A stretch of 64,000 nt of DNA from Candidatus Lloydbacteria bacterium RIFCSPHIGHO2_02_FULL_50_18 (GCA_001821395.1 MHLM01000006.1:1-64000), one strand, 5' to 3'; counted from the first letter of the stretch, positions 1-27,013 are shown. Numbers and translations: made by a program. The notes: a model not told the origin generated them from the sequence alone.

Positions 1-289
1 ACTCCTTGCAAGGTATTCGGAGCATGTTGCGTTTCAAGATAGAATTTAAGTGCACTCATCGCAGCCCTCATTTATTTGGCGATAGCAACAGTTCTACAAT
101 AATAAGTTTAGGATATTTGAATCTCATCCTCACTCATCACATAATCGATTTCGAATCCTGTGTGATGATTAATAACTGCACCCGCAGGAAGAATACCTGT
201 TTTTCCCCTTATTCGTTCGCGTAATTTAACTATTTTAGTGACAGATGACGCACATATTCAACCTATTCAGTCAAAAACTTTCTATACCG

Positions 290-346
290 AAAAGCGACCC
301 TTATCGGTCGCCTCTTGAGTCTCTGCGTCGGGGGTGCCTATAGGGA
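290..346. repeat. Putative attL: 57-bp direct repeat of the tRNA-His 3' end plus terminator hairpin (54/57 identical to 21303..21359)
   Basis: aaaagcgaccc..tcgggggtgcctataggga recurs at 21303..21359 with 3 mismatches; contains the tRNA-His acceptor/T-arm 3' fragment in the same orientation as the tRNA. Confidence 0.75.
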
Positions 347-372
347 GATCTCGGCTTACAGCCGCAGTACAC

Positions 373-418
373 CTTTGCGATTTATTCAGCATGAGAATGC
401 TTCACAAATAACGCAAAG
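373..418. repeat. Conserved hairpin motif, copy A: core TTTATTCAGCATGAGAATGCTTCACAAATA enclosed by the CTTTGCG/CGCAAAG stem
   Basis: Core is 30/32 identical to 29727..29756; the outer stem sequence differs but stays complementary (covariation). Confidence 0.6.
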
Positions 419-475
419 CTCTTCGATTCCCTATCGCAAGCAAAGCAGTTTGCTTGCTTAGTCACCCCTCAACGA

Positions 476-505
476 AAAAACTCCCGGGAGGGAGTCTTTT
501 CTTAT
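476..505. terminator. Bidirectional rho-independent terminator-like hairpin (A-run, CTCCC-GGGA-GGGAG, T-run)
   Basis: aaaaaactcccgggagggagtcttttctt. Confidence 0.5.
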
Positions 506-797
506 TCGGGGTGCCAATCCAGTTGTGAACCATACCCGCGAGACGGTTGAGAGGTTTCTTGACCGATATCTCGAGATCGCACTAATGCAATGCGGTCTGG
601 GTCTGATCGATACCTCTCTCCCTTCTACTCCCTCTCTGACTCCCCCTCCTACCTCTGACGATTCTCGACCCCAGTGAGACACCACAAGGGTTTCTTGTGT
701 TTCGCGAATAGTTCGACAATTCAGGAGCCCTGCTCCTCGGTCGTGAACCAATTATGTAGGGTGAGGAGGCAGTTTATCAATTTTAATCACACACAAT

Positions 798-1457
798 ATG
801 CAACTCTCTGAAGAGTCGGTTGATGAATTTAAGGAAATTTACAAGAAAAAGTACGGCAAAGAATTGGGTGATGCCGAGGCGCATGAATCCGCGAGAAAGC
901 TTGCGGGGTTCTTCGAGCTACTCTACAAGTGCGCACAGGAAGACAGCGCGAAGAAGCGTCGACTGAAAAAAGAGCCTGGAGGGTTCCCCACTGACGGGAA
1001 TCGCAACTGTCTTGTCTGTCATGCAATGATCACATCAGAAAATGGTTGGTACGATAAGTACGGTCAGAAATGTCTCAACTGCCAGCGCGCACTCAACACG
1101 GGTGCTGTTCCAACTTATGTCTTTATTAACCACGATAGTTTCTTCCTCCCTTGGCAGCTCAAGAGTAAGTTCGATCTCCCGCATGCAACTATGCGCAAAT
1201 TATTGCGACAGGGAAAATTAACAGCGAGAGTTATCACCACCGAGAATGGAGGTGTTCACGAATACATTCTTCTCAAAAAAGAAAATCCTGCGCTTGTTGC
1301 TCTTGAGAAATGGAATCCGATGCGAAAGTCATATGATCGACATCGGGATAAGGTGCACCGACGAGAAATGCGTGAGGAACTAAAAAAATTAAAGGCGGGA
1401 CTCTACGCTGAACACGCGAAGTGGAAAAAGAAGATCGAGAAACTGCGTACACGTTGA
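798..1457 (+). CDS. Hypothetical protein with a CxxC..CxxC zinc-ribbon and a basic C-terminus
   Basis: 219-aa ORF with NCLVCH..CLNCQ; no recognisable family. Confidence 0.5.
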   Translation: MQLSEESVDEFKEIYKKKYGKELGDAEAHESARKLAGFFELLYKCAQEDSAKKRRLKKEPGGFPTDGNRNCLVCHAMITSENGWYDKYGQKCLNCQRALNTGAVPTYVFINHDSFFLPWQLKSKFDLPHATMRKLLRQGKLTARVITTENGGVHEYILLKKENPALVALEKWNPMRKSYDRHRDKVHRREMREELKKLKAGLYAEHAKWKKKIEKLRTR

Positions 1458-1491
1458 TTGCGTACGCAGTCTCAAATCCTTCGAGTTGCAA

Positions 1492-1701
1492 TTACCCGAA
1501 ACGGTGCTCGACCTCTAATACAAGAGAGGGGTCTTTTCGATGATCCGCGATTTCGGCAACAACTTTCAATACATGCTCCTTGGTCAGATTGCCGATTTTC
1601 GCGTCTGCGACCCACTGGGAAATGTATCCACGAAATGCGGCATCCGCGCTGACTTCCTCGATCCACTCTTTGCCCCAGATGATATTTGGATTAGTGCTCA
1701 T
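1492..1701 (-). CDS. Small hypothetical protein (69 aa)
   Basis: Protein-like composition; competing overlapping ORFs on both strands. Confidence 0.25.
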   Translation of the reverse strand: MSTNPNIIWGKEWIEEVSADAAFRGYISQWVADAKIGNLTKEHVLKVVAEIADHRKDPSLVLEVEHRFG

Positions 1702-1837
1702 GTTCTTATCGATTAACTAATAATATCCTTATTTTACAAGAGTACATTTCGATCACGGGGGGATAGATTTCGGTGCGATTCCTCCGGGGACTGCTCCTCG
1801 GTCGTGAACTAAAATAGTACGACCCTCGAGGACATTG

Positions 1838-2347
1838 CTACTGCGTCACCGCATCACTCCCATGGTCACTCACTTGTGCATCAAACCACGCATGGATAGC
1901 ACTAAGTGTTTCGGTGTCTGTAGTCTCAAAATCGATCTTTGCTCCGTTCTCAATCTCACTGTAGGTTACCTTCATCTTTGTATAATTTGTTTTCAAAACG
2001 GATATACCTGCCATGCTCTCTCCGTGTAACCCCGTTGGGTCGGAAAAATTACCCTGCGCAAAGTTCTGCGCTTCCATCTGTAAGTGCATACGTATGAGCG
2101 AGAGATCTTGTGTGTCTCCCGGGTCACGCACAACGACACTCTGTGTTCCCCCGTTTTCGGTCTTCTTAAAGATATGCTGCGTCTTATCAAGACTGAACGG
2201 CATCACATTCTGACCTTTTTCATGGATCATTTGCTGGCGTGATGCGGGTTGTCTATTCCCAAGGAGAACATAAGACACGGCAACTACTACAATAACCGAT
2301 ACGGCTCCAATGATGATTTTGTGTGTGTTTTGAATTTGCATGCTCAC
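1838..2347 (-). CDS. Membrane-anchored hypothetical protein (N-terminal TM helix)
   Basis: 169 aa with an N-terminal hydrophobic helix; overlaps the downstream SHOCT gene by 4 bp (operon). Confidence 0.5.
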   Translation of the reverse strand: MSMQIQNTHKIIIGAVSVIVVVAVSYVLLGNRQPASRQQMIHEKGQNVMPFSLDKTQHIFKKTENGGTQSVVVRDPGDTQDLSLIRMHLQMEAQNFAQGNFSDPTGLHGESMAGISVLKTNYTKMKVTYSEIENGAKIDFETTDTETLSAIHAWFDAQVSDHGSDAVTQ

Positions 2348-2589
2348 TGGAGATCTTTCTTTTTTTCCTCAAACTCCTTCTGGTCTATCTCCCCTTTGGC
2401 ATACCGCTCTTTCAAAATATCAAGCGGAGATTTTTCGTGAGCATCACCACCATGGTTGTGTCCACATGCATGACCACCACCAAAACCTGATCTCACCAAG
2501 GAGACGATGCCCCAGATGACGAGGCCCCAAAAGATAATCATAAAGATCGGACCAAAACCGCCCATATATCCGTATCCAAAATCCATCAT
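2344..2589 (-). CDS. SHOCT-domain membrane protein
   Basis: N-terminal TM segment, Gly/His-rich linker, C-terminal LKERYAKGEIDQKEFEEKKKDL (SHOCT signature). Confidence 0.7.
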   Translation of the reverse strand: MMDFGYGYMGGFGPIFMIIFWGLVIWGIVSLVRSGFGGGHACGHNHGGDAHEKSPLDILKERYAKGEIDQKEFEEKKKDLQ

Positions 2590-2626
2590 ATGTTTGTGAA
2601 TTAATTATTAATAGTCGCAGGAATGA

Positions 2627-2956
2627 TCAAAACGTGACGACTTTATCCGAAGTCTCGATCATCTTGAGTAAGTCAGTCATCGTGGAAATGGGGCAGACTC
2701 CGCTCTCTTCTTTATTGCGAAGCTTCAGACACGTACCGCAAGCAAAGATCTCGCCCTTCAGTTCCTTAAACTCCGCTACCTTTACCGAGATGTCGAAATG
2801 TTCAGAATCTGCAATCGTATCGAGCTCGGATCCCTCGCTCATTAAAAAAACTTCCGCCTGATTGCCCGCTTTGAGCGCGGTGATTCCAAGGCGGAATGCA
2901 TTCCACGCATGTTCAGGGTTATTCGATTGCAAGATGATGCCGAGTTTCATTTTCAA
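2627..2956 (-). CDS. DsrE/DsrF (YchN)-like sulfur-relay family protein
   Basis: 109 aa; MKLGIILQS..; Cys-containing DsrE-like fold pattern. Confidence 0.55.
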   Translation of the reverse strand: MKMKLGIILQSNNPEHAWNAFRLGITALKAGNQAEVFLMSEGSELDTIADSEHFDISVKVAEFKELKGEIFACGTCLKLRNKEESGVCPISTMTDLLKMIETSDKVVTF

Positions 2957-3139
2957 ATTGTATCATAAATTAGCAGTGCGTGATTCCTTGGAGGTAATCC
3001 TTCAGGGAGTCGAACCAGATGTTACAAATGTTACACCCAAAGCCCCATTTTGGAGGCAATCTGAGCGAGCGTTTTTAAAAACGAAACGGCTATAAATATA
3101 GGTATTTGACGAAAAAAAGGGTTGATATAATGAGGGTAT

Positions 3140-3766
3140 ATGAATACACACAAAACGCCGCGATTCTCGGCACGTAAAAAGAACAAGGATCATATGACGC
3201 TTCTCCTTAGCTCGGAAGCGTTCCAGGCGGACGTCAAACTTCTCCGTGAGAGGTTCAACATCCATAAGGGTGGGAATACACAGGATGGTGCTCAACTCGC
3301 ATGGCTCTCACTGAACGCACCCCAGATGTATGAGTACGTAAAGGCAGTGAGCGATCTCGCAAGAGCATACCAAGTACCGGGGAACTTCGGCCGTCACTTG
3401 AAGACATATATCGAAGAAGGGATCGTGAGTAATCCCGTGAATCGCTTTGATGTGATCCCTCCGAATCCCCTCAATCCCTCGCTCACGGTGCAGATGCATG
3501 CAAAGCTCACCCGTGACGAGAAGGAGGATACGCTTGCGGAGGTCGACCGAGTTGGCGAAGCACTCATGGCATATGGAACGATCAAGGATCTCCCCGACCT
3601 CCTTGAAAGCGAGCGCCTTTATGGCGAGTGCGAGCAATACAATACAAGCAAGGATCGTGAGTACATCCTCACAGTGAAAGAGCAGGATCCGCGCAATACC
3701 GATCGCCACTACGAGAACATGCGCGTCCTCCGCAAAAAGCGCAATGAGCGATTCGGAATAAAGTGA
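3140..3766 (+). CDS. Hypothetical protein
   Basis: 208-aa ORF with GC-rich coding-like composition; no family recognised. Confidence 0.45.
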   Translation: MNTHKTPRFSARKKNKDHMTLLLSSEAFQADVKLLRERFNIHKGGNTQDGAQLAWLSLNAPQMYEYVKAVSDLARAYQVPGNFGRHLKTYIEEGIVSNPVNRFDVIPPNPLNPSLTVQMHAKLTRDEKEDTLAEVDRVGEALMAYGTIKDLPDLLESERLYGECEQYNTSKDREYILTVKEQDPRNTDRHYENMRVLRKKRNERFGIK

Positions 3767-3811
3767 GGAGGGTTTTTCCCAAGTCGAGAAAATAAGGGTG
3801 AAACACTGAAT

Positions 3812-5131
3812 ATGCGGTCACACGATCGCATTATTCACTCATCTTTACCCTCTATGGCAAAGACGCAACTCACTTGGCAGACGGAGAAACGCAAGGTCGA
3901 TGACCTCGTTCCCCACGCCAAGAACCCTCGCACCCTCTCTCCAAAGCAGAAGGAGGAAATCGAAGCGAGCATTACCAAGTTTAACCTCGTCGAGATCCCC
4001 GCGATCAACACCGACAATCTCGTCCTCGCCGGACACGTTCGCCTGAAGACCATGCAGGCACTCGGGCGCGGGCAGGAACTGATCGACGTGCGCGTCCCAA
4101 ATCGCACGCTCACTGCAAAGGAGTGCGAAGAGTACCTTCTCCGTTCCAATAAGAACACCGGCTCATGGGATTATGAGCTACTCAGAGCATTCGATACCGA
4201 GTTTTTGCTCGACATCGGATTCGACGATACCGACCTTTCGAATATTTGGGACGATGTACTCTCACTCGAAGACGACGACTTCAATGAGACGAAAGAGCTC
4301 GAGAAAGCCAAGAAAACCACCATCAAGGTCGGTGACTGCTTTCAGCTCGGTGATCACTCCCTCATATGCGGTGACAGCACCGACGAAGCGGTCGTGAAAG
4401 ACTTGGTCGGAGGCTTCCGCATCGACACCATCTATTCGGATAGCCCGTACAACATCGACCTGAACTATGACAAGGGCGTAGGCAACAAGCAGTCATACGG
4501 TGGAGATGTCGACGACAACAAGTCTGATGCGGAGTTCAGGGCATTCACCGTGAAGACCCTTGCGAACGGACTCTCGGTCATCAAGAAGGACGCACATGTC
4601 TTCTGGTGGTGCGACCAGCGTTATGTCGGGATGATCCAATCGGTGTATCAGGAGGTTGGGATCAAGTACAAGCGCACCTGCTTGTGGATCAAGAACGGAT
4701 TTTCGCCGACACCCAAGGTCGCCTTCAACAAGTGCTACGAGCCTTGTATCTATGGCACTATCGGCAAGCCCTATCTCTCCGACAAACAGCGCAAACTCCA
4801 CGAGATACTCAACACCGATGTTGGCACGGGAAACGCCACGGTAGATGACATCAGTGACATGATCGACATATGGCTTGCAAAGCGTGTGAGTAGCGACGAG
4901 TACGAGCACCCCACCCAGAAGCCACTCACGCTCCACGAACGCCCACTCCTGCGCTGCACGAAGATTGGCGATAATGTCCTCGACCTCTTCGGGGGAAGTG
5001 GTTCGACGCTTCTCGCTTGTGAACAACTGGGGCGCAAGGCCTTCCTCGTCGAACTGAGCCCCATCTTTTGTCAGCTCATCATCAACCGCTATGAAAAATT
5101 CACCGGAGACAAAGCAATCAAGCTCAATTAA
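3812..5131 (+). CDS. ParB-like nuclease domain fused to a beta-class DNA (N4-C/N6-A) methyltransferase
   Basis: N-terminal ParB-like motif region; motif IV DSPYN then motif I DLFGGSGST (order IV then I is beta class). Confidence 0.8.
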   Translation: MRSHDRIIHSSLPSMAKTQLTWQTEKRKVDDLVPHAKNPRTLSPKQKEEIEASITKFNLVEIPAINTDNLVLAGHVRLKTMQALGRGQELIDVRVPNRTLTAKECEEYLLRSNKNTGSWDYELLRAFDTEFLLDIGFDDTDLSNIWDDVLSLEDDDFNETKELEKAKKTTIKVGDCFQLGDHSLICGDSTDEAVVKDLVGGFRIDTIYSDSPYNIDLNYDKGVGNKQSYGGDVDDNKSDAEFRAFTVKTLANGLSVIKKDAHVFWWCDQRYVGMIQSVYQEVGIKYKRTCLWIKNGFSPTPKVAFNKCYEPCIYGTIGKPYLSDKQRKLHEILNTDVGTGNATVDDISDMIDIWLAKRVSSDEYEHPTQKPLTLHERPLLRCTKIGDNVLDLFGGSGSTLLACEQLGRKAFLVELSPIFCQLIINRYEKFTGDKAIKLN

Positions 5132-5888
5132 GACGGGAGATGTGATCGCGCTCGGTGATCACATCCTGATCTGTGGAGATGCGACAAAGGTTGACCTCGC
5201 GAGCATTGTGAAAGGCAGAGTCCACCTTGTCCTCACCGACCCGCCGTATGCGATCGACTACGTGGCGAGCAAGCGCAACATCGTCGGCGTGTCGAAGGAC
5301 AAGGATATTGCGAACGATGGCTTCATGAGTGATGCAGAGTATGTGACATTCACGAAGGGGTGGCTCACGCCAGTACTCCCCCTCCTTGAGAAGAAGAACA
5401 GCATCTACGTCTTCAACTCGGACAAGATGATCTTCGCTCTGAGGCAGGCATTCGTGGAGCTCAGGCTCAAGGTGGCACAGCTCATCATTTGGGTGAAGGA
5501 TCGCGCCATCGTCGGGAGACTCGACTACCTCCCACAACATGAGCTCATCCTCTATGGATGGCACGGGACCCACGACTTCAAGCGCGGGAAGGACAAGTCA
5601 GTCATGTTCGTGCCGAAGCCATCACGCAGTACGCTTCACCCCACCATGAAGCCGATCCCTCTCCTCCGCAAACTCATCTTGAACAGTACCGATGTGGGTG
5701 ACGTGGTCTATGACCCGTTCGGAGGGAGCGGATCGACGCTCATCGCCTGCGAACACACGAAGCGCAGATGCGTCATGGTGGAGATGGATCCCGAGTACTG
5801 CGCAACGATCGTTCGTCGCTACGAGCAGTTGATTAACCGCGAAGACAATGGCAAGCAAGCACCCCACAGTACTGGAAAAGCGAATTGA
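5091..5888 (+). CDS. Beta-class DNA methyltransferase (DPPY)
   Basis: LTDPPYAIDY (motif IV) then DPFGGSGSTLIA (motif I); overlaps the upstream MTase by 41 nt. Confidence 0.8.
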   Translation: MKNSPETKQSSSIKTGDVIALGDHILICGDATKVDLASIVKGRVHLVLTDPPYAIDYVASKRNIVGVSKDKDIANDGFMSDAEYVTFTKGWLTPVLPLLEKKNSIYVFNSDKMIFALRQAFVELRLKVAQLIIWVKDRAIVGRLDYLPQHELILYGWHGTHDFKRGKDKSVMFVPKPSRSTLHPTMKPIPLLRKLILNSTDVGDVVYDPFGGSGSTLIACEHTKRRCVMVEMDPEYCATIVRRYEQLINREDNGKQAPHSTGKAN

Positions 5889-6246
5889 TGCCCAAAAGGA
5901 AAAGGTTATCGAGTTCCTTGCTGAATCCGGCAACATCAGCTTCGCATGCAAGCGAGGGGGTATCAGTCGCGAGACATACTACCGATGGAGGGACGATGCG
6001 AGGTTTGCGGCAAAGGCTGACAGTGCCATTCAGTCGGGCAAGACCTTCGTGAACGACCTTGCCCACACCCAGCTCATCCGCAAGATCCAAGAGGGTGACA
6101 TGCAAGCGATACGCTTCCATCTCGTGAACTGCCATGACGACTATCGCCCGAAGCTGCCCGAGCGCATCGAGCGCGTGGTGCCGATCACTGCGGTGGAGAT
6201 CATTCAGGCGAGCCATGACTGCAAGAAAGAGGTTAACGCCGAGTAG
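5848..6246 (+). CDS. Phage terminase small subunit-like HTH protein (P27 family-like)
   Basis: GNISFACKRGGISRETYYRWRDDARF..AIRFHLVN pattern typical of TerS-type HTH proteins; no large terminase nearby. Confidence 0.55.
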   Translation: MASKHPTVLEKRIDAQKEKVIEFLAESGNISFACKRGGISRETYYRWRDDARFAAKADSAIQSGKTFVNDLAHTQLIRKIQEGDMQAIRFHLVNCHDDYRPKLPERIERVVPITAVEIIQASHDCKKEVNAE

Positions 6247-6982
6247 TCGCCTCCATAATCTTCTCCGCGATCTGTTTCCAATCATTATTCGATACTCCGT
6301 GTGCCACCGAGTGAGGGACGACTGCATATACTGTGTGGTCGTCTTTTGCTACATAGAGTTTCTTGGGAATTGTTTCGTGAAATGGTGCATCAGTGATCTC
6401 TCTCCAGTCTTCGAGATAGACCATGGAGTAACAGATGACGACTTTGGGTTTGTGTTTTTGGATGAGTTCACGGAGACGCTTAATGCGTTCGGGTTTGTAC
6501 ATCTTGAGGTACTCACGGCGAGATGACAGCCCCTCAATTCCCGATGATGCATACACCCAATCTTTTGCATGGAGCGAACGAGCAGGGAGCGGCATCAATT
6601 CGAGTAGCGCGTGATCATTGTTCTTTCTGCCAAAATGATTGATCTGGTATTCGCGGATATCTTCAAGTGATGGTTCTTTGCTTGTTTGGAAATAGCGTAG
6701 CAGATAGATCAGCTTGCGATAGGTTGCTTGTGTCGGCGCACCGTCCGTAAACCACGCCATGTGATCCGCATCACCGCCCATATCGTCGCAGATATCAAAG
6801 ACTTCTCCGTTTGATGTTGCTTCGAAACGTTTGATGAGTTTGGGTATTGATCCGTCGCATCCTTCTTCCATTCCTACAAACCACACATCACTATCTAATT
6901 CTCCATAACCCCAGAAATGTGCAATGCGTTCGTTGATCAGATGCCGAAAATTCCCTTCCGAAGAAAGTGTCGAGTTGTTCAT
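6233..6982 (-). CDS. Hypothetical protein
   Basis: 249-aa ORF; CTCTAGCGGG motif 10-20 nt upstream of the start. Confidence 0.45.
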   Translation of the reverse strand: MNNSTLSSEGNFRHLINERIAHFWGYGELDSDVWFVGMEEGCDGSIPKLIKRFEATSNGEVFDICDDMGGDADHMAWFTDGAPTQATYRKLIYLLRYFQTSKEPSLEDIREYQINHFGRKNNDHALLELMPLPARSLHAKDWVYASSGIEGLSSRREYLKMYKPERIKRLRELIQKHKPKVVICYSMVYLEDWREITDAPFHETIPKKLYVAKDDHTVYAVVPHSVAHGVSNNDWKQIAEKIMEATTRR

Positions 6983-7014
6983 ATATTGCTCTAGCGGGTT
7001 GGCAAATATGCTCG

Positions 7015-7581
7015 CTACTCTTTATCGGTTGTTCCATCCTGATAGATGATCGTACCAGGAAGCCAGACGTACTTGAGATTTTCAAGATCGGTGTTGTTCA
7101 ACTTGATATCGCTATCAATGAACTGGTTGTATTTGATGCTTGCAACCCACGCTTTGTCGGTGTGTGCAGCAATGGGAGTATCGTCGTATGCAATGCTCAC
7201 GCGTTTGATCTCGTTCTTGAAGATGTCGTAGAAGATGATCATTCCCTCTACGCCGCGAACATCTTTTGCGGTTTTGTTGGAGAACTTAAAGCCAAGGGTG
7301 ATGTAACTTTGAAATTGACCATCCTCGGCATTTGCGGGGTCAAACTTTTTCGAGGTGACCGTGAGGTCAACCTTTTCACGAAGTTTGTTCGGGGTGGCGA
7401 TATCCGCAACGGGAGCTTTCTCCTCGATGGTGGTTTTTCCATCCATCATGCCCGTGATTCCTTTTAATCCTTCAGATAATGCATTGCGTATTTGATACGC
7501 TTTGTACTCCATACCGGAGAAAAATCCTATGATAAAAATAAGTGCCGCAAGAGCGGTCTTTACGATGTGCTGCTTGTTCAT
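7015..7581 (-). CDS. Membrane-anchored or secreted hypothetical protein
   Basis: 188 aa with an N-terminal hydrophobic helix; structured leader upstream. Confidence 0.5.
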   Translation of the reverse strand: MNKQHIVKTALAALIFIIGFFSGMEYKAYQIRNALSEGLKGITGMMDGKTTIEEKAPVADIATPNKLREKVDLTVTSKKFDPANAEDGQFQSYITLGFKFSNKTAKDVRGVEGMIIFYDIFKNEIKRVSIAYDDTPIAAHTDKAWVASIKYNQFIDSDIKLNNTDLENLKYVWLPGTIIYQDGTTDKE

Positions 7582-7740
7582 AATTTGCTCTAGCGGGGTT
7601 TAAAGCGGGGAGGTAAGCAAAAGGCTCCCAGCCATTGCGATGGTGCCTTTCGGCGACCACCCGTATCCCTTTCGAGACACGACCCGCTAGAGCGACTCTG
7701 ACTGGGAGTCTTTTATTCTCTAGCGGGGATTTTCGACCAT
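7582..7740 (-). promoter_or_regulatory. Structured leader or small RNA with three copies of the CTCTAGCGGG motif able to form alternative pairings, plus nested hairpins
   Basis: CCCCGCUAGAG (from 7718-7728) and CUCUAGCGGG (from 7683-7692) form a 10-bp stem; a third copy (7588-7598) lies 9 nt before the AUG of 7015..7581; GAAA and CGCA tetraloop hairpins between them. Confidence 0.4.
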
Positions 7741-7809
7741 ATCCTAAAGCGTGAGCCGTAGGGGTTAGGTCTCCTATTAAGTTGTACTTGGTATTGTACG
7801 GCATATAAA

Positions 7810-7847
7810 GAAACCGCTCAACCTTAGCTTAGATCAAGCGGTTTGCG
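7810..7847 (-). terminator. Hairpin downstream of the RM operon (AAACCGCT..AGCGGTTT), a possible terminator
   Basis: 8-bp stem with an 18-nt loop; followed on the minus strand by a weak CTTTATAT tract. Confidence 0.3.
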
Positions 7848-7868
7848 AAGCAGAGTTACCAACAGCAA

Positions 7869-9023: not shown

Positions 9024-9026
9024 AGA

Positions 9027-14612: not shown

Positions 14613-14613
14613 A

Positions 14614-16101
14614 CTATTTTGATATCAGAGAAAACCCATCTAAGAGTCTTTTGAGTTCTGTCTCAGCCTCCCATACCTCCTCGAGAGAATTCTTCAACTC
14701 TTTCGTGGCCTCTTCTACTGACGGGAGTGTCTTACCTGAAATCTTTTCAATATAAAGAGAAATATTTAGGCTCCAATCATTTGCCGCAATGTCTTTGAGG
14801 GTTGCCACCACGGCGTGGTCTTTAACACCCTTGAACGCAGAGTACCAGTCGAAAATCTGATCAACATGCCTCTGCTCAAGATAATTTTGAGCACGATCCA
14901 CGCGCACCTGGTCTGATGCGTCTATAAACAAAACCTTACCTTCTTTGTTGTCAGGCTTATTAGCACGAAATACTAAAATGCATGCGGCAACTGTTGCTCC
15001 ATAGAAGATATTAGGCCCAAGTCCTATCACTGCTTCAAGCGCATCTGTCTCTATTATTTTCTTTCTTATTTGTCCTTCTCGACCCTTGCGAAATAGTGCG
15101 CCATGAGGAAGAACCACGGCTATGCGTCCGCGAGGATAAGACATGGATTTGATCATGTGTTGCACCCACGCGTAATCTCCATAACCAGCTGGTGGTACCC
15201 CTGCAAAATTTCTACCGTATGGGTCCTGAATCCAAAGGTCATCACCCCACTTCTTTAGGGAGAAGGGTGGATTAGCAATAACGCAATCAAAGGTCGAAAG
15301 TTGATCGCCTTCATAGTATGCGGGACTTCGTAATGTATCTCCACGCTGAATTTGGAAGTCCTGAACATCGTGGAGGAACATGTTCATGCGAGCAATGGAT
15401 GAAGTGGTGAGGTTTTTTTCCTGTCCAAATATTTTTAGAGTGCGGGCGTCCTTACCATGAGAGCGTAGGTGCTCAACACAATTGAGTAGCATGCCTCCCG
15501 TACCACAGGCTGGGTCATATACAGTCTCACCTTCTTTTGGATCAATTATACGGCCCATGAGCTGAACAACTGTTCTCGGTGTATAAAACTCCCCCGCTTT
15601 CTTGTTTGTTAAATCAGCAAACTTTTTTATGAGGTATTCGTATGCCTGACCGAGCATGTCGAGGTCGACCGTTCCGTTTGCCAGCTTGTATTCAGAAAAA
15701 TGTTCAATAAGTTCCACCAATAAGCTGTCGGGCAACTTCTCCTTGTTGGTCCATTGTGCATCTCCAAAGATCCCATACAGAAAATCAGGATTGGCTTTTT
15801 CAATTTCACGAAATGCATACTGAAGCTTTGCTCCAACATTCTTTGTGGTGGCGCGCACATCTGCCCAATGACATCCATCAGGAATTATAAATCTATGGAA
15901 TTCTGGCAAAACTGCGTAACCCTCATCGCCCTTAGATTCTTCTAATAGCTTTTTATATTCATCATCATAAACATCTGAAAGTCGTTTAAAAAACAGGAGT
16001 GGAAAAACATATACCTTAAAATCAGCAGCATCAACTGGCCCCTTGAGTATCCATGCGGCTTGAGCGAGATGTTGTTCGAGTTGTGGGAGTGTCAATTTCA
16101 T
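14614..16101 (-). CDS. hsdM: Type I RM N6-adenine methyltransferase subunit (paralog 2, roughly 50% identical to paralog 1)
   Basis: 495 aa; VYDPACGTGGMLL and IANPPFS; collinear with paralog 1. Confidence 0.9.
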   Translation of the reverse strand: MKLTLPQLEQHLAQAAWILKGPVDAADFKVYVFPLLFFKRLSDVYDDEYKKLLEESKGDEGYAVLPEFHRFIIPDGCHWADVRATTKNVGAKLQYAFREIEKANPDFLYGIFGDAQWTNKEKLPDSLLVELIEHFSEYKLANGTVDLDMLGQAYEYLIKKFADLTNKKAGEFYTPRTVVQLMGRIIDPKEGETVYDPACGTGGMLLNCVEHLRSHGKDARTLKIFGQEKNLTTSSIARMNMFLHDVQDFQIQRGDTLRSPAYYEGDQLSTFDCVIANPPFSLKKWGDDLWIQDPYGRNFAGVPPAGYGDYAWVQHMIKSMSYPRGRIAVVLPHGALFRKGREGQIRKKIIETDALEAVIGLGPNIFYGATVAACILVFRANKPDNKEGKVLFIDASDQVRVDRAQNYLEQRHVDQIFDWYSAFKGVKDHAVVATLKDIAANDWSLNISLYIEKISGKTLPSVEEATKELKNSLEEVWEAETELKRLLDGFSLISK

Positions 16102-16331
16102 TTTGGTGACGATGTCAGCTTTTCAACGGTAGTCCCCAGAGCTGTGGCAATTTTTACCATCGTTGCCACTCGGGGATCAGGAGTGAGTCCGCTCTCAATC
16201 TTCGCAATGGTGTGATAATCAAGGCCGGTTTTCGTAACCAGCTTGCTCTTAGACAATCGCTTTTCATTTCTAATTTTTCTCAAGTTTCCTGCGATATTTG
16301 AGAATTTTTTTGGGTGAGATTTCTTTTTCAT
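16098..16331 (-). CDS. XRE-family HTH protein; candidate controller (C) protein of the RM operon
   Basis: 77 aa HTH_3-like (LSKSKLVTKTGLDYHTIAKIESG); 4-bp overlap with hsdM. Confidence 0.7.
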   Translation of the reverse strand: MKKKSHPKKFSNIAGNLRKIRNEKRLSKSKLVTKTGLDYHTIAKIESGLTPDPRVATMVKIATALGTTVEKLTSSPK

Positions 16332-16488
16332 ACGACAACCTTGCTTAGCATAATTATACCAAATTTATTGAGTTTTTGCTGCAATAAAAAGTGGATAAAA
16401 ATAGGGCTATTTGAGGGATGGTTACCAACAGCTTACCAACTGACCCTCCCTGGACTCCCTGGGAGGGTTGCGTCATCAATTGGTGTGT

Positions 16489-17844
16489 ATGAAAAATACA
16501 AACCCGCTAGAGGGCTCTGACGAGCCGAAAATTAAGTACTGTTTATACGCTAGAAAATCGAGCGAATCGGACGAGCAGCAAGCCCTTTCGATCGACTCCC
16601 AAGCCAAGGAGATGCTCCAGCTGGCGCAACGAGAGGGGCTTGATGTGGTCGACATCAAGCGCGAGTCGCACTCCGCAAAAAGCACCGGGCAACGCCCGGT
16701 CTTCAATGAGCTGATCAGCGACCTCAAGGAGGGCAAGTTTAATGCCATTCTCGCATGGCATCCGGATCGCTTAAGCAGAAATGCAGGCGACCTCGGTGCT
16801 ATCGTCGACCTGATGGACGAGCACCGACTTATCGAAGTGAGAACCTTTGGTCAAAAGTTTACAAATAGTCCAAGCGAGAAGTTTCTACTCATGATTCTAT
16901 GCTCGCAAGCAAAGCTTGAGAACGACAACAAGGGCGTGAACGTGAAGCGGGGGCTACGAGCAAAAGTTGAGATGGGACTATGGCCATGCGTTGCACCGAC
17001 CGGATACATCAACGACCGCATGCCTGGGCGTGCAGGATATGTGCTCGTCGACCCGGTGCGTGCTCCGATTATCAAGCAAATATTTGAAAAGGTCGGCAAT
17101 GACCGATGGAGCGCTAGGACGGTTTATAAATGGATGGTCAAAGAAGGAAAGTTCAATAGCGTGAGAAAAGGAAATAAGGCACTCACCCTGAGCACAATCT
17201 ATCGACTTCTGCATCAGCCTTTCTATTCGGGAACATTCGAGTACCCCACCGGGAGCGGTAACTGGTACAAAGGTCAACATGAGCCACTCGTTTCCAAGGA
17301 ACTCTTCGAGAAGGTGCAGCAAAAAATAGCGGAGGAGTTGAAGTCAAAGAAACAATATCAAGAATTCACCTTCACGAACCTTATGCTCTGCGGATACTGT
17401 GGGTCAGGTATTACCGCACAATCAAAAGACAAAAATCTCAAAGATGGGAGCGTCAAAAGTTACACCTACTACAACTGCACGCACAACAAGGATCACTTCT
17501 GCAAAAACCCGTTCATTCGCGAAGAAGAACTTCTCAAACAGATCGATGAGATCTTCGACAAGATCGATATCGACGAACTTGGAACACGGCATATCATTGA
17601 AAGAGAGGTTGCGCGATACAACAACATTCGGGCAAAACTCCTCGGCGCAAAAGAAAATGACAAAGCACTCGACGTCGACGTGCGAAACTATGCCAAGTAC
17701 ATGCTCAAAGAAGGCACGATGCTCGAAAAACGCGAACTCCTAGGGTGCCTAAAAAATAGAATTATTCTGAAGGATAAAACGATAACGCTTGAAAAAAGTT
17801 TGCAAATTAATGACTTAACGCCACAAACACAGATAGCACGCTGA
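16489..17844 (+). CDS. Large serine recombinase (resolvase domain, recombinase domain and zinc ribbon)
   Basis: YARKSSESDEQQALSIDSQ catalytic Ser region; C-terminal CGYCGS..YYNCTH; an alternative TTG start exists at 16468. Confidence 0.85.
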   Translation: MKNTNPLEGSDEPKIKYCLYARKSSESDEQQALSIDSQAKEMLQLAQREGLDVVDIKRESHSAKSTGQRPVFNELISDLKEGKFNAILAWHPDRLSRNAGDLGAIVDLMDEHRLIEVRTFGQKFTNSPSEKFLLMILCSQAKLENDNKGVNVKRGLRAKVEMGLWPCVAPTGYINDRMPGRAGYVLVDPVRAPIIKQIFEKVGNDRWSARTVYKWMVKEGKFNSVRKGNKALTLSTIYRLLHQPFYSGTFEYPTGSGNWYKGQHEPLVSKELFEKVQQKIAEELKSKKQYQEFTFTNLMLCGYCGSGITAQSKDKNLKDGSVKSYTYYNCTHNKDHFCKNPFIREEELLKQIDEIFDKIDIDELGTRHIIEREVARYNNIRAKLLGAKENDKALDVDVRNYAKYMLKEGTMLEKRELLGCLKNRIILKDKTITLEKSLQINDLTPQTQIAR

Positions 17845-18172
17845 GGATGACGAGTATCTTCACCCCACCTCCATACACAATCCAAGTAAATAATTTTTTT
17901 GCAGCAAGCATAACTATTCCGAGCACCAGAATGGAAACTCCAACGCCCGTGAGTGGGTCGTGCAATCCTTTCATAGGAGCATGAGTCCAAACAAAAAATA
18001 TACCTACGACAACCATAAGCCGCGCAATTATGTTAAACCAGCTTATGGAATCTTCGTGGCCAAAAGGAGCACCTCCTATGCCAACTTTCTTAGCAAAGAA
18101 GACACGAGTTACTGCTCCGGCAACACTTGCGATAACACGAATTACTAACTGTTGGAAAAAACTCCCATCCAT
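17807..18172 (-). CDS. Small four-TM membrane protein, last gene of the Ubl/E1 operon (candidate effector)
   Basis: 121 aa with four hydrophobic helices; 1-nt gap after the JAB-E1 stop; convergent 38-nt overlap with the recombinase 3' end. Confidence 0.5.
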   Translation of the reverse strand: MDGSFFQQLVIRVIASVAGAVTRVFFAKKVGIGGAPFGHEDSISWFNIIARLMVVVGIFFVWTHAPMKGLHDPLTGVGVSILVLGIVMLAAKKLFTWIVYGGGVKILVILSVLSVFVALSH

Positions 18173-18173
18173 A

Positions 18174-19565
18174 CTATTTTAAGTTCTCATCAAAAACTTG
18201 ATAACTATCATCATTTGAGTCTCCTTTTCCGGTAAATTCTGAGAATGGGCAATTTGGCAAGCAGTCTTCACCGAGTTTTCTTTCCAGCTCCCCGGTAACA
18301 AAATGGTATAGATTTTCACCGTGATGACTTATGCCGTTGGGTTTTACTACAAGTGCCAACATCTGTAGCACCATCATTGAGGCGAGGTGCATGCTAAAAG
18401 CAAAAACGTTTTGATTGTTCAAGTGATGGCGCAAACCGTCAACGGTGTTTATGTACTCCGAATCATCCAGCAGACCTTTGCGTTCAAGAGACACTTCAGC
18501 AAAGGTGTACTGCCCAATGCACGAGAGACATTTATTACCCGGGGTTGCAGTGTGCGCACGCCAATCCGCTGAGCGCAACAAATCCTCCTTGGTGTGCACT
18601 CGAATACCACCATCAACGACTGGAATCAGGTGTGTATAAGCAATGTAATTAAGAACGTGGCGCGCCCACGGCCTATCAACGCAACTGAACAGGAGGTCAC
18701 AATTTAGTGCACCTCGGTATCCCTCAGCTCCAGTTACATGAACTGGTAATCGTGTGACGAAAAAGTTGTCGGCAGTTGCGTGTTCAATAAGTCTTTTTGC
18801 AATTACATCCGTCTTCAATTCACCAACATCTTTTATCGTCGCATGCATAAGTCGATCGAGGTTGTGTTTCTTTACTACGTCAAAATCGATAAGCGAAATA
18901 TGCTGAACTCCAGTTCTAGCAAGTGCCTCAGCAATAGCACTTCCGACACTTCCCGTGCCGACTATTCCTATGTGTAAACGAGATAATTCGTCTTGCTTAT
19001 CTTGACCCCATGAAGAAATTGTACGTTTCAGTTCTTCTCTAAAACCCTGCGGCTTAAGCAGCGCGTCACAATAGGTGATAGAAAGGCCCATTTGACCTAT
19101 AGTGCGAACACTCTCGCACCATGATGGAGCATATTCCCGAACCCCGGTTCTATTCCAAAAACGAGCACTCCACGCACCATCTGTGCCTATAGTTAGTCCA
19201 AGGAGGGGTCGTTCTGTTATTCCAAAGGTTGCCGCAGCGTGCGATAACTCCGCCCGAACATCGGTCCTGCTCATATTCTGCCATCCAGGAAACGGGTGGC
19301 TATGCATAAAAGCAAGGCCCATATCTCGGGCGGATGCTATTTGTAGTGCTCTCTGAAAATACTCGGGAGAAAAACTCGCGTTGCCATGCACTTCCCGCTC
19401 TCCGTCTTCAGGAAGAATCGGTTCAACCAAGAGTGCTGTCAGTCTTTCTCCTCCGCTGCTCGGCTGCCACAAAGCAAAACATAAGTCTTCCTGCCCATCC
19501 TTACGCACAAGATGAGAAAAGAGTTTCTGGTTTACCTCGGTTGTCATCGCTACGCTGTATCTCAT
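18174..19565 (-). CDS. JAB/MPN (JAMM) metalloprotease fused to an E1-like ThiF/MoeB adenylyltransferase
   Basis: N-terminal HSHPFPGWQNMSRTD (HxH..SxxD JAMM motif); then GIVGTGSVGS..IDFDVVKKHNLDRL E1 Rossmann motifs; C-terminal CxxC pairs. Confidence 0.8.
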   Translation of the reverse strand: MRYSVAMTTEVNQKLFSHLVRKDGQEDLCFALWQPSSGGERLTALLVEPILPEDGEREVHGNASFSPEYFQRALQIASARDMGLAFMHSHPFPGWQNMSRTDVRAELSHAAATFGITERPLLGLTIGTDGAWSARFWNRTGVREYAPSWCESVRTIGQMGLSITYCDALLKPQGFREELKRTISSWGQDKQDELSRLHIGIVGTGSVGSAIAEALARTGVQHISLIDFDVVKKHNLDRLMHATIKDVGELKTDVIAKRLIEHATADNFFVTRLPVHVTGAEGYRGALNCDLLFSCVDRPWARHVLNYIAYTHLIPVVDGGIRVHTKEDLLRSADWRAHTATPGNKCLSCIGQYTFAEVSLERKGLLDDSEYINTVDGLRHHLNNQNVFAFSMHLASMMVLQMLALVVKPNGISHHGENLYHFVTGELERKLGEDCLPNCPFSEFTGKGDSNDDSYQVFDENLK

Positions 19566-19924
19566 AGTGTGTTGAGGAGTTTTATAACGTGAGCAAGGTA
19601 AACATCGACGTTACGTTTACTACTTTCCCAGCTCGGGTGCGGCCTACTAAGATGCATCCACTCAGGGCCAAAATCACTGTCGTGAATTCGATCACGATGC
19701 TCCTGTGATGAGGTGTTGGTGGGCAACGTACGCGGATGAATATGTGGGCCGTGGGGAGCAGTCAGCTCAAAGTCTCCTGGGACATCTACCCCAACGCGAA
19801 CTGTCTTGCCTGCAAGAGTTCCTTCGTTGACAGACAGCGCAAATGCCAGCCGATTGCCTTCAAGGTTTTCAACCTCAAAACCAAGATTCTTGAGACCTTG
19901 AATAAATTTTTCTTTGCCGCTCAT
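19562..19924 (-). CDS. E2/UEV-like protein lacking a catalytic Cys
   Basis: 120 aa, beta-rich, then PHGPHIHP (HPN-like) and two W.P-like motifs; no cysteine; 4-bp overlap with the E1 gene. Confidence 0.4.
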   Translation of the reverse strand: MSGKEKFIQGLKNLGFEVENLEGNRLAFALSVNEGTLAGKTVRVGVDVPGDFELTAPHGPHIHPRTLPTNTSSQEHRDRIHDSDFGPEWMHLSRPHPSWESSKRNVDVYLAHVIKLLNTL

Positions 19925-19929
19925 GTTGT

Positions 19930-20184
19930 TTACCCCACAGGCGTTTGTCCAGTAAACACCGTGACGAACTTCATGTGATTATGCATCTTGATCACCTCGT
20001 CCAAATCTTTATGCGGTTCCTGCTGATGACCCTTAACCTCAACCAAATAGTACTGCTGCGAATCGACATTCGCCATTGATAATATCTCTCGAACAGACAA
20101 CTCCTTCTTTTCAGTAGTGAGTGTTTCACCGTCGACCGTAAAATCGATACCGTGACCTTTTTCCTCCTTCTCGTGGTTTTCCAT
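19930..20184 (-). CDS. Ubiquitin-like beta-grasp protein ending ...TGQTPVG
   Basis: 84 aa; IDFTVDGE..YYLVEV..KFVTVF beta-grasp pattern; terminal Gly; 5-bp gap to the next gene. Confidence 0.5.
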   Translation of the reverse strand: MENHEKEEKGHGIDFTVDGETLTTEKKELSVREILSMANVDSQQYYLVEVKGHQQEPHKDLDEVIKMHNHMKFVTVFTGQTPVG

Positions 20185-20295
20185 ACAGTTTTTTTATATA
20201 ATTAATGAATTAACACATGAACCAATATTCCTCTTGACTCTGGACGAGAGTCGCGGTAACCTGTTTCATATGTAAGACAGTGTACACCTGAGGTG

Positions 20296-20315
20296 TTTCA
20301 CTAGTCAAACACTTT
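20296..20315. promoter_or_regulatory. Near-perfect 20-bp palindrome GTGTTTCACTAGTCAAACAC; candidate operator in the divergent promoter region
   Basis: 18/20 self-complementary; 9 bp upstream of the XRE start and upstream of the divergent Ubl operon. Confidence 0.45.
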
Positions 20316-20323
20316 TTTCATTT

Positions 20324-20674
20324 ATGAAACACAATAAAAACAGCGTCAATTTTGCTATTGAGCAATTGGGTCAGAAGGTCGCGCTTAAAAGATCGGGAAG
20401 CGGGATGAGAGATACCTCCGCAGAGATTGGCATCAGCCCTGCTACCCTCTCGCGAATCGAGAGGGGGTACATGCCCGATATCGGCACATTCCAAAAAGTA
20501 TGCACTTGGCTCAACATTGATCCGGGTGAAATTCTTGGTGCAAAAACTCACGTCAGTGAGGTGCAGATGGCAACTGTGCATTTTCGTAAGAAGCAAACGG
20601 TTGCTCCGGAAACCGCGCAAGCTTTAGCACAACTCATTATTGCAGTACAAAATAATGTTCTCGCATCAGAGTAA
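20324..20674 (+). CDS. XRE-family HTH repressor (CapH/ImmR-like)
   Basis: SAEIGISPATLSRIERG HTH_3; paired with the downstream ImmA peptidase. Confidence 0.8.
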   Translation: MKHNKNSVNFAIEQLGQKVALKRSGSGMRDTSAEIGISPATLSRIERGYMPDIGTFQKVCTWLNIDPGEILGAKTHVSEVQMATVHFRKKQTVAPETAQALAQLIIAVQNNVLASE

Positions 20675-20692
20675 AAAACTGATTATGTTGTC

Positions 20693-21271
20693 ATGTTTAA
20701 AAAAGGATTTAAAACCTGGTGTGAAAGAGCTTCAATTAGTACTCGCAGACAACTGGGTCTGCAATCTTTCGATCCGATAGACTTATACAAGGTCGCGGCA
20801 ATCGTCGAGGCTGATATTAAGTATCCAAAAGATGTTCCTGGGCTTGATAAAAAGTTTTTAAAAATTTTAACGGAGGAGGACCCAGATAGCTGGTCTGCAA
20901 TAACCATAAAAATAAAACAGAAAATCGTTATTATTCTAAACTCTGCCCACACCAAAGCGCGTCAGATGAGTAGTCTTGGTCATGAGTTATCTCATTTGAT
21001 TATCGGACACCCTGCGTCCAAAACTGGTATTTCAGCAGATGGGCTTTTGATAACTGGGTTCGATCGACTTCAAGAGGATGAGGCGGGATGGCTTTCGGGG
21101 TGTCTTCTTTTGCCCCATGATGCGTGTCAGTATATTAAAAAGACAAAGATGGACCAAAGCAGTGCTCAACGACATTACGGAATAAGCGCTGATATGTATA
21201 CATATCGCATGAACGCCTCTGGGGTAAATCGCTTGTGGACCCCTAAAGTAAGTAGCATTAAAGCGAAGTAA
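20693..21271 (+). CDS. ImmA/IrrE-family zinc metallopeptidase (CapP-like)
   Basis: HELSHLIIGH HExxH motif in the DUF955 context, directly after the XRE gene. Confidence 0.8.
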   Translation: MFKKGFKTWCERASISTRRQLGLQSFDPIDLYKVAAIVEADIKYPKDVPGLDKKFLKILTEEDPDSWSAITIKIKQKIVIILNSAHTKARQMSSLGHELSHLIIGHPASKTGISADGLLITGFDRLQEDEAGWLSGCLLLPHDACQYIKKTKMDQSSAQRHYGISADMYTYRMNASGVNRLWTPKVSSIKAK

Positions 21272-21302
21272 CGACCTATCAGGTCTAGAACCTTTAATGC
21301 CA

Positions 21303-21359
21303 AAAAGCGACCCTTCTGGGTCGCCTCTTGGGTCTCTGCGTCGGGGGTGCCTATAGGGA
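21303..21359. repeat. Putative attR: the partner of the 57-bp direct repeat, overlapping the tRNA-His 3' end and its terminator hairpin
   Basis: See 290..346; the GCGACCC-TTCT-GGGTCGC hairpin serves as the tRNA terminator. Confidence 0.75.
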
Positions 21360-26938: not shown

Positions 26939-27013
26939 TTGCGTCTCCTAAAGAAAACAGGGTGCGTCTGGCGCACCCTGTAAGGTTTAAATCACAATTG
27001 TCGCACGGTTCTC

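Follow-up and report, generated by a model that had tools for sequence, protein, structure and literature searches.

A 21-kb accessory island at a tRNA-His gene of Candidatus Lloydbacteria, and a family of large serine recombinases associated with tRNA genes in the candidate phyla radiation

A stretch of 64,000 nt from Candidatus Lloydbacteria bacterium RIFCSPHIGHO2_02_FULL_50_18 (GCA_001821395.1 MHLM01000006.1:1-64000), hereafter the window, to whose numbering all island coordinates refer, holds an island of about 21 kb which ends at an intact tRNA-His gene and is framed by direct repeats of the 3' end of that gene. The only recombinase encoded by the island is a large serine recombinase (LSR). 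Comparison with 82 loci carrying homologues of this enzyme suggests that the LSR is likely the integrase of the island and that it belongs to a large family from the candidate phyla radiation (CPR, Patescibacteria), whose clades correspond to different tRNA genes.

Direct repeats and the tRNA-His gene

The ends of the island are marked by three features:

261..346, no strand assigned: distal direct repeat, made of terminator-like DNA (hairpin 294-311) and a 17-nt tRNA-His 3' fragment (330-346), antisense on the plus strand
21274..21359, no strand assigned: proximal direct repeat, terminator and tRNA-His 3' end
21343..21418, minus strand: intact tRNA-His(GTG), the proposed integration target (ARAGORN; Rfam, 62.7 bits)

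A previous reading of the window made from the sequence only (the sequence-only reading) had described repeats with 54 identities over 57 positions (290-346 and 21303-21359), including the 3' end of tRNA-His. These are found as described, and the ungapped similarity reaches further, 261-346 and 21274-21359 being identical at 73 of 86 positions (85%), without any mismatch in the last 28 nt, which end at 346 and at 21359. The 64 kb contain exactly two occurrences of a 20-mer taken from the repeat, with none expected from shuffled sequences; the 28-nt core had no match in the viral and metagenome contigs searched, a collection that evidently lacks the source samples. Each copy is composed of the final 17 nt of tRNA-His, counted from the last T of the T-loop, and about 69 nt of downstream DNA with a terminator hairpin. 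The hairpin GCGACCC-TTNT-GGGTCGC attributed earlier to both copies is present in the right one (GCGACCC-TTCT-GGGTCGC), but the left one has a slightly different form (GCGACC-CTTATC-GGTCGC). The copies part after GGGA, with GATCTCGG on the left and ATCGAACC, the tRNA body, on the right. The tRNA body continues from the right copy only, and ARAGORN and Rfam both confirm that the intact tRNA sits at the right end alone.

The proximal repeat begins 3 nt past the stop codon of the ImmA gene, and the 59 nt that adjoin the tRNA are identical in an alternative allele of the site (L202, see below). The distal repeat can be aligned to the native DNA downstream of tRNA-His in related genomes, and AGACCGA...GGTTCTAGAC motifs downstream of tRNA-His are conserved at tRNA-His loci across different CPR lineages. 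The idea that AGACCGAGAAG and GGTTCTAGAC form a genome-wide repetitive extragenic palindromic element was rejected, GGTTCTAGAC being found once in the window.

The large serine recombinase and its family

16489..17844, plus strand: LSR, 451 aa, proposed integrase (Pfam Resolvase, PF00239, E 1e-21; Recombinase, PF07508, 8e-14; Zn_ribbon_recom, PF13408, 2e-9; PHROG 95, integrase, 6e-71)

Residues Y20, R22, S24, Q31, D93 and R94 are invariant in an alignment of 42 LSR sequences and, from a reading of the motif, S24 would be the nucleophile. A conserved leader of 68 nt (16421-16488) precedes the start codon and includes a hairpin of 10 bp (CCCTCCCTGG-ACTC-CCTGGGAGGG, 16444-16467). More than 8000 homologues with 57-67% identity were found, and those that carry a name all belong to Patescibacteria/CPR; a scan of IMG/VR with the LSR gave no match.

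The 82 loci fetched around LSR homologues were compared with the island proteins and with ARAGORN tRNA calls. A recurrent gene order emerges, with a ParB-methylase fusion, a TerS-like protein, often TerL, then variable cargo (often restriction-modification genes) and the LSR. The ParB-methylase is present in 29 of the 82 loci and is followed by a TerS-like homologue in about 26; TerL (498 aa), recognised by its terminase RNaseH-like nuclease domain, is found in 22. A LexA-like repressor is sometimes present as well. Because canonical relatives carry both TerS and TerL, the family can be regarded as phage-derived.

The main argument for the role of the LSR comes from its relation to tRNA genes. 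Wherever a downstream tRNA is present, the first one lies on the strand opposite to the LSR (40 of 40 loci). A tRNA within 3 kb is observed downstream of the LSR in 15 of 40 loci, versus 2 of 53 upstream, and the gap between LSR and tRNA ranges from 80-215 nt in minimal relatives to several kb in others. Moreover, identity clusters of the LSR sort by tRNA, with separate Arg, Ser, Gln and Asp clusters. In the cluster of the window's LSR, the six members in which a tRNA is visible, the window among them, face tRNA-His without exception, which amounts to about five independent cases since L105 and L106 may be one element. Because of this correspondence between clade and tRNA, and because of the fixed orientation, it is likely that the LSR is the integrase that catalysed the insertion of the island and that tRNA genes are its targets. 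The sequence-only reading had seen an oddity in an LSR directed at a tRNA gene. This view is not borne out in a family of more than 8000 members that adjoins tRNA genes in a fixed convergent orientation, with clades that track the tRNA.

At a tRNA-Ser gene, locus L125 provides a second bounded element. Its repeat of 48 nt (87.5% identity) combines 22 nt from the tRNA 3' end, reaching the T-loop, with 26 nt from downstream of the tRNA, and delimits 13.2 kb with the gene order of the family.

Variability of the tRNA-His site

The CobA protein (cobalamin adenosyltransferase) encoded in the island flank shows 100% identity with one encoded by a metagenome-assembled genome of Candidatus Lloydbacteria (Parcubacteria, CPR) from Rifle groundwater. 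The GC content of the island is 45.8%, versus 49% in the remaining window. Several metagenome assemblies hold identical copies of the island, and every one of those contigs stops at the left edge of the window. At this edge, window 1-40 and L006 1-132 encode the C-terminus of a transposase-like protein (…INHRPRKSLHWETPCKVF…), which we take to be of the IS30 family.

Relatives with CobA proteins 86%, 77% and 75% identical retain the synteny PrkA-DUF444-SpoVR-CDF-CobA-tRNA-His. Past tRNA-His, their DNA is unrelated to the island:

L092 and L094, behind tRNA-His: Fic...ArsP...DsrE-SHOCT
L096, behind tRNA-His: SWIM/HNH genes
L099-L101, behind tRNA-His: Fic and other genes

No integrase was found in the tRNA-His islands examined in this set of relatives (L092-L101). 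In L096, a decayed tRNA-like fragment and the conserved terminator are located 1.4 kb downstream of tRNA-His. The intervening 1.4-kb islet (12107-13581) encodes proteins of 80 and 65 aa and a SWIM-domain protein, and contains three occurrences of the motif TAGACCGAGAAGGGT.

The strain represented by L202, which is contig k141_274362 of ERZ27254842 and is 99.3% identical in the flank, matches the window through tRNA-His and 59 further nucleotides and then departs, the sequence past the divergence having no match in the window or in any fetched locus. In this alternative allele (L202 955-1173), the 59 common nucleotides are followed by the gene start for a signal-peptide-like protein (MRHVAIILSILLSFFAW…) that is not in the window. 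Because L202 and the relatives carry different DNA behind tRNA-His, the region can be considered, from these comparisons, as accessory at both the strain and the species level, in agreement with the integrated accessory island that had been proposed.

Gene content and probable composite build of the island

Cargo was identified using Pfam, PHROGs, PADLOC, NCBIfam and a PDB sequence search, together with gene calls on identical contigs. Besides the LSR, the island contains the following features:

798..1457, plus strand: 219-aa protein, function not assigned (no family match; tblastn homologues in recombinase loci L169, 44%, and L175, 31%)
1492..2341, minus strand: two small open reading frames (ORFs) of 69 and 167 aa (gene calls; 167-aa product without family match)
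2344..2950, minus strand: SHOCT-domain protein and DsrE-like protein (Pfam)
3194..3766, plus strand: 190-aa protein (gene call; no family match)
3812..5131, plus strand: fusion of a ParB-like N-terminus and an N6/N4 DNA methyltransferase, family backbone (Pfam N6_N4_Mtase; PHROG ParB-like and methyltransferase)
5091..5888, plus strand: second N6/N4 DNA methyltransferase (Pfam, E 1e-33)
5848..6246, plus strand: TerS-like helix-turn-helix (HTH) protein, family backbone (Pfam HTH_Tnp_1_2; PHROG terminase small subunit)
6233..7581, minus strand: two ORFs (249 and 188 aa) in the position of the relatives' TerL (no family match)
7642..7771, minus strand: LOOT RNA (Rfam RF03000; 71.4 bits versus a gathering score of 46.4; model positions 1-121)
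7869..9023, minus strand: 384-aa protein downstream of hsdR (no family match)
9027..16101, minus strand: type I restriction-modification operon (Pfam), with HsdR (9027-11996), HsdS (11993-13138) and two HsdM paralogues (13125-14612 and 14614-16101)
16098..16331, minus strand: XRE-type HTH protein (77 aa), head of the restriction-modification operon (Pfam HTH_3)
17807..20184, minus strand: Bub-like ubiquitination operon of four genes, listed as Ubl, 120-aa protein, BubCD-like E1 and 121-aa protein (ThiF Pfam; PDB 9ea4; PADLOC E1-E2 models)
18174-19565, minus strand: BubCD-like ThiF-type E1 of this operon (PDB 9ea4, Citrobacter BubCD, E 2e-23, residues 6-328)
19930-20184, minus strand: putative ubiquitin-like protein (Ubl) of this operon (weak Multi_ubiq match, 22.5 bits versus a cut-off of 24.5)
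20324-20674, plus strand: XRE-type regulator (Pfam)
20693-21271, plus strand: ImmA/IrrE M78 peptidase (Pfam)

Pfam, PHROGs and the PDB sequence search thus agree with the mobile, phage and defence character previously attributed to the cargo. PADLOC, PHROGs and NCBIfam returned nothing for eight ORFs of unassigned function, and the 120-aa and 121-aa partners in the Bub-like operon have no detectable family. The ParB-like N-terminus matches only ParB-like families of PHROGs; the Pfam domain ParB_N was found on its homologue in L103. No member of the TerL cluster is present in the window. The two hsdM paralogues stand in tandem and at full length (495 aa each, 13125-16101) in one operon, and the same pair is found in L105 (80% and 82% identity). 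A 22-nt repeat (CTGCTCCTCGGTCGTGAACCAA, 21/22) located at 730-751 and 1791-1812, upstream of the genes for the 219-aa and 69-aa proteins, may be an operator; it resembles GTTGTGAACCAT at 523-534.

LSRs 97%, 92% and 85% identical to that of the window have entirely different neighbours (type II-like methylase/nuclease sets, RadC/MutH-like genes). Homology with these close relatives starts at 16421, 68 nt before the ATG of the LSR, and stops 65 nt before its stop codon. Metagenome contigs break at 526-527, at 16139/16222 and at 21322, two assemblies breaking just upstream of the LSR because homology among close LSRs starts there. A branch between attP and attR was considered for the start of a Logan contig at 21322 and did not explain that start. 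From these comparisons, the restriction system fills a fast-turnover slot upstream of the LSR, and the Bub-like operon and the XRE/ImmA pair fill a second slot, from the LSR to the tRNA. The location of the LSR in the middle of the island, which had been regarded as unusual, is explained by the cargo gained in these flanking slots.

The DsrE-SHOCT cassette (2353-2968) shows 83-86% nucleotide identity with three unrelated contexts, L092, L140 and L147 (blastn), with sharp homology boundaries, and its DsrE protein is 93-97% identical to theirs; its position relative to the recombinase differs among them. In L092, the only one of these three contexts that includes the core flank, this flank is 72-73% identical to the window, as compared with 83-86% for the cassette. 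The different restriction and defence cargo of near-identical LSRs explains the probably composite content of the island, and the 21 kb were probably built by successive insertions at one tRNA, as judged from the weak inner tRNA fragments described below, the contig starts and the difference in identity between cassette and core flank.

The structured left end and similar units behind other tRNA genes

Directly inside the left repeat lies a structured unit, followed by a third tRNA-like fragment. The parts of the unit are all given on the plus strand:

347..506, plus strand: structured end unit (DNA fold z-score -5.9)
355-371, plus strand: palindrome CGGCT-TAC-AGCCG in the motif CTTACAGCCGCAGTACA (motif pattern CTTACAG-N5-RGTACA)
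372-418, plus strand: hairpin 1 (about 47 nt)
422-434, plus strand: inverted sense copy of the tRNA-His T-loop/T-stem (TTCGATTCCCTAT)
436-457, plus strand: hairpin 2 (9 bp), splitting the T-arm copy from the acceptor-like segment
459-468, plus strand: acceptor-like segment TAGTCACCCC
475-505, plus strand: terminator
507..531, no strand assigned: weak third tRNA-His-like fragment (CGGGGTGCCAATCCAGTTGTGAACC), ending in GAACC (a 28-nt match from 508 has 18/28 identities with the tRNA, non-significant alone)

The design of the end unit recurs at five further tRNA-linked sites, namely the left end of L125, tRNA-Lys, tRNA-Leu(GAG), L099 and L106. At all of them, the arms of the palindrome covary and the inverted copy corresponds to the local tRNA. 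Cargo is absent from the sites at Lys, Leu and Arg. In the window and in L125, the motif with covarying arms directly adjoins the distal tRNA fragment. A scan of IMG/VR for the end motif gave 10 chance-like matches, with no LSR and no tRNA near them.

Two of these copies lie in the window itself. After tRNA-Lys (44302-44375), a unit of about 170 nt (44376-44546) has the design of the left end of the tRNA-His island and no cargo. Its parts are a terminator and a hairpin, the tRNA-Lys T-arm in inverted copy (GCAGGGCTCGAA), then a second, long hairpin and the palindrome GCGCC-TTAC-AGGCGC; the 16 nt at 44531-44546 repeat the 3' end of tRNA-Lys without mismatch. This unit could be a relic or a non-autonomous mini-element. 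Another copy is located at 29636-29800, between tRNA-Leu(CAG) and tRNA-Leu(GAG), window 379-448 and 29724-29794 being 82% identical; further copies are found in L099 (4190-4330) and L106 (8640-8800).

The fragment at 507-531 may be where the recombinase element has its inner junction. In three samples, Logan contigs have their first base at 526-527, which in two cases is the G of GAACC; in L169, a comparable terminator followed by a tRNA-Gln fragment stands upstream of the homologue of the 219-aa protein. A second weak tRNA-His-like fragment is found at 2993-3020. It should be noted that matches in the ungapped scan for degenerate tRNA fragments were mostly non-significant.

Association of the LOOT RNA with the recombinase

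The LOOT RNA of the window, with which a spurious 110-aa ORF overlaps, has counterparts in the family. Rfam detected it in 4 of 10 further loci examined, and a covariance model built from five copies found it in 26 of the 82 recombinase loci (L111 6359-6483, L169 5776-5892, L172 7860-7983, L133 11366-11493 and 22 others). It usually lies either on the strand opposite to the LSR, 200-330 nt upstream of it, or on the LSR strand, 40-70 nt downstream. The restriction cassette stands between LOOT and LSR in the island of the window. To judge from the literature searched, no description of a link between LOOT and a recombinase is available. This orphan RNA thereby gains a concrete genomic context adjoining a recombinase gene, and its function becomes testable. 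A role as guide RNA was considered and rejected, since no complementarity of LOOT to the target tRNAs was found, the longest LOOT-target matches averaging 7 nt for cognate and 7.4 nt for non-cognate pairs.

One may imagine that LOOT is a functional partner of the LSR, as a regulator or as a directionality or assembly cofactor for tRNA-targeted integration, and/or that the palindromic, tRNA-mimicking units of about 190 nt seen behind several tRNAs are non-autonomous mini-elements mobilised by the same enzymes. We regard this proposal as decidedly speculative and improbable. Either part, if true, would reveal a new RNA-linked serine-recombinase system that switches tRNA targets.

Other features of the window

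The PrkA-DUF444-SpoVR operon at 24000-29005 (minus strand) stands within a CPR genome and is present on related Parcubacteria contigs as well. For SpoVR, the best 80 matches listed from GTDB species genomes are from Burkholderiales, with 69-76% protein identity and without the tRNA-His synteny, which suggests an inter-phylum transfer of the operon. At 38328-38948 (minus strand), ARAGORN calls a 621-nt 'tmRNA*' overlapping a tRNA-Ser; Rfam sees the tRNA alone, and the call is probably false.

A model for the island and its alternatives

The explanation that we favour, and that we consider probable, is the integration by the LSR of a phage-derived element of the CPR family into tRNA-His, followed by gain of cargo, loss of TerL and accretion. 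The LSR would insert the element into the 3' part of tRNA-His. An attP mimicking the tRNA's 3' terminus and its terminator would restore an intact tRNA at the recombinase-proximal end, and the displaced 3' fragment would mark the far, left end. The family backbone is composed of ParB-methylase, TerS, in some cases TerL and the LOOT RNA, and the LSR, followed by the tRNA. The copy in the window would be a decorated and probably decayed and composite version which has lost TerL. The type I restriction system and unassigned genes would have entered the hypervariable slot upstream of the LSR, the Bub-like operon and the XRE/ImmA pair would have been inserted in the interval from the LSR to the tRNA, and earlier insertions at the same tRNA may be the source of the far-left 0.2-3 kb. 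The repeats, the gene content, the variation of the site among strains and species and the family-wide association of LSR and tRNA are shown by the data; what we infer here is the catalysis of the insertion by the LSR, the location of the crossover and any present ability to excise.

Typical serine integrases use a 2-bp crossover. For the LSR, the candidate positions of the crossover are the T-loop or its vicinity, GAACC, and the stretch of up to about 60 nt downstream of the tRNA, in which L202 departs from the window and AGACCGA...GGTTCTAGAC is conserved. The following junctions are predicted:

Candidate outer attB: ...CTTGAGTCTCTGCGTCGGGGGTGCCTATAGGGA joined to ATCGAACCCTAGCTAAAGG
Candidate outer attP: ...CTTGGGTCTCTGCGTCGGGGGTGCCTATAGGGA joined to GATCTCGGCTTACAGCCGCAG
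Candidate inner attP: ...GGTGCCTATAGGGAATCGAACC joined to ATACCCGCGAGACGG
Candidate inner attB: ...GGTGCCAATCCAGTTGTGAACC joined to CTAGCTAAAGGCTCC

Several observations weigh against this model. A repeat of 57-86 nt exceeds what the 2-bp crossover of a serine integrase needs. Clear flanking repeats are seen only in the window and in L125, the one case from a search of 20 family loci, and none was found in 18 other loci searched over +/-10 kb; in several loci of the family, the 10 kb downstream contain no tRNA. The weak fragments at 507-531 and 2993-3020 and the contig starts at 526-527 suggest that what lies within the outer repeat may be a tandem array and not one element. The IS30-like element truncates the left chromosomal flank and hides the original context, and no excised circle was recovered. 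Finally, the sequence-only reading had advised a comparison with related genomes to look for an empty tRNA-His site. Relatives do have differing DNA behind the tRNA, but the exact empty site was not recovered, and L202 does not represent it because its tail has no match to the left flank of the window.

Part of these data would also fit a hypervariable defence hotspot, that is, a patchwork whose pieces pass between strains chiefly through homologous recombination or transformation. The outer repeat would then be an old scar, the present 21 kb would not move as a unit and the LSR element would be one tenant. The pieces would be the mini-unit at 347-506, the block from the 219-aa gene to DsrE, the backbone from ParB to the LSR and the Bub/ImmA block. 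Such an origin is consistent with the weak inner tRNA-like fragments, with the contig breaks, with a DsrE-SHOCT cassette more conserved than the core flank, with the different neighbours of near-identical LSRs and with the tRNA-His islands of relatives, in which no integrase was seen. However, it leaves unexplained that the LSRs of one clade face tRNA-His and those of other clades face other tRNAs, as well as the clean repeats of the L125 element, so that we consider it rather unlikely. The hotspot is in fact largely compatible with integration by the LSR, the dispute being whether the LSR made the outermost junctions.

Resemblance to a phage-inducible chromosomal island (PICI), put forward in the sequence-only reading, would imply a satellite that is induced by a helper phage through XRE/ImmA, excises and redirects packaging by means of its TerS-like protein. 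The island does have the TerS-like protein and the ImmA/XRE pair, relatives have TerS and TerL and sometimes a LexA-like repressor, and the 13.2 kb of the L125 element are below the size of tailed phages. Against this, Pfam, PHROGs and NCBIfam scans of the island ORFs revealed no replication module (primase/helicase or Rep), and neither capsid, capsid-remodelling nor packaging-interference genes were detected, leaving the TerS-like HTH protein as the sole packaging-type gene; TerL is missing, the 21 kb are above the typical size of a PICI, the integrase is not of the tyrosine type, the XRE/ImmA pair sits in the cargo slot by the Bub operon, away from the integrase, and IMG/VR yielded no relatives of the LSR or of the end motif, with no helper phage known. 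This satellite is thus very improbable. Even less credible, in our opinion, is a tRNA island made by a tyrosine integrase that was later lost, with the LSR as unrelated cargo. A long repeat that starts in the T-loop is reportedly the textbook signature of tyrosine integrases (Williams is said to have described it in 2002), and ImmA/XRE by the tRNA recalls the int-immA-immR layout of ICEBs1. Nevertheless, no ORF of the island matches a tyrosine recombinase family of Pfam, in line with the earlier statement that the LSR is the only recombinase. The decayed tyrosine integrase for which a scan had been advised is not found among the island ORFs either, and there is no room for one because the island is gene-dense, with 3 nt from the ImmA stop codon to the repeat. 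Tyrosine recombinases form no conserved cluster across the 82 family loci, as opposed to the strong association of the LSR with tRNA genes.

Relation to known elements

Of the systems described so far, the tycheposons of Prochlorococcus come closest. They integrate at tRNA genes, some are 'PICI-like' with terS, and 27 of 937 have an LSR in place of a tyrosine recombinase (Hackl et al., bioRxiv 10.1101/2020.12.28.424599). Compared by description, both systems have streamlined hosts, insertion at tRNA genes, partial tRNA repeats and modular cargo, with the LSR in a minority of tycheposons. The tycheposons differ by their cyanobacterial hosts, whereas in the CPR family the LSR is the rule, no replication genes (primase, helicase) were found and the backbone consists of ParB-methylase/TerS/TerL and the LOOT RNA.

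The LSR shares the Resolvase, Recombinase and zinc ribbon architecture with phage-type LSRs (phiFC1, Streptococcus suis rum-site prophages, phiC31, Bxb1, TP901-1), and also the location of the integrase gene at the end of the element, adjoining the att site. Among deposited phages, its best matches are annotated serine integrases with less than 30% identity. The sites used by the known phage-type enzymes have a short core and are protein-coding or intergenic, whereas the CPR family targets tRNA genes and its attP appears to imitate the tRNA 3' end and terminator over 50-90 nt. As in tRNA islands of the Islander/TIGER type, there is a direct repeat of the tRNA 3' end, an intact tRNA at one end, accessory cargo and presence or absence among relatives. 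To our knowledge, those islands overwhelmingly use tyrosine integrases placed by the tRNA; the island of the window has none. With PICIs and other phage satellites, the family has in common the small size of some relatives, the TerS-like gene, immunity-type regulators and site-specific integration, but it differs by its integrase type, by the lack of any replication module or capsid-interference genes among those found, and by the absence of any sign of a helper phage. SCCmec/CcrAB elements are likewise cargo islands that rely on serine recombinases, occupy a conserved housekeeping gene at its 3' end, have direct repeats and form tandem or composite arrays, but they target rlmH, use paired CcrA/CcrB and have no phage-like backbone.

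Significance

An island at a tRNA gene is ordinary in itself. What is unusual is the targeting of tRNA genes by LSRs across a huge CPR family, the palindromic ends that mimic tRNA and the association with LOOT. In the literature searched, no description of a CPR family of serine-recombinase tRNA elements was found, and the family is apparently undescribed. If the targets are specific to clades (His, Ser, Arg, Gln, Asp, Met), these enzymes would offer a natural set of orthogonal integrases whose attB sites already exist. Very little has been described of the mobile elements of CPR/Patescibacteria, and the island opens a family with thousands of recombinase homologues. Within the tiny genomes of these bacteria, this LSR family seems to be a main vehicle of restriction and other defence genes.

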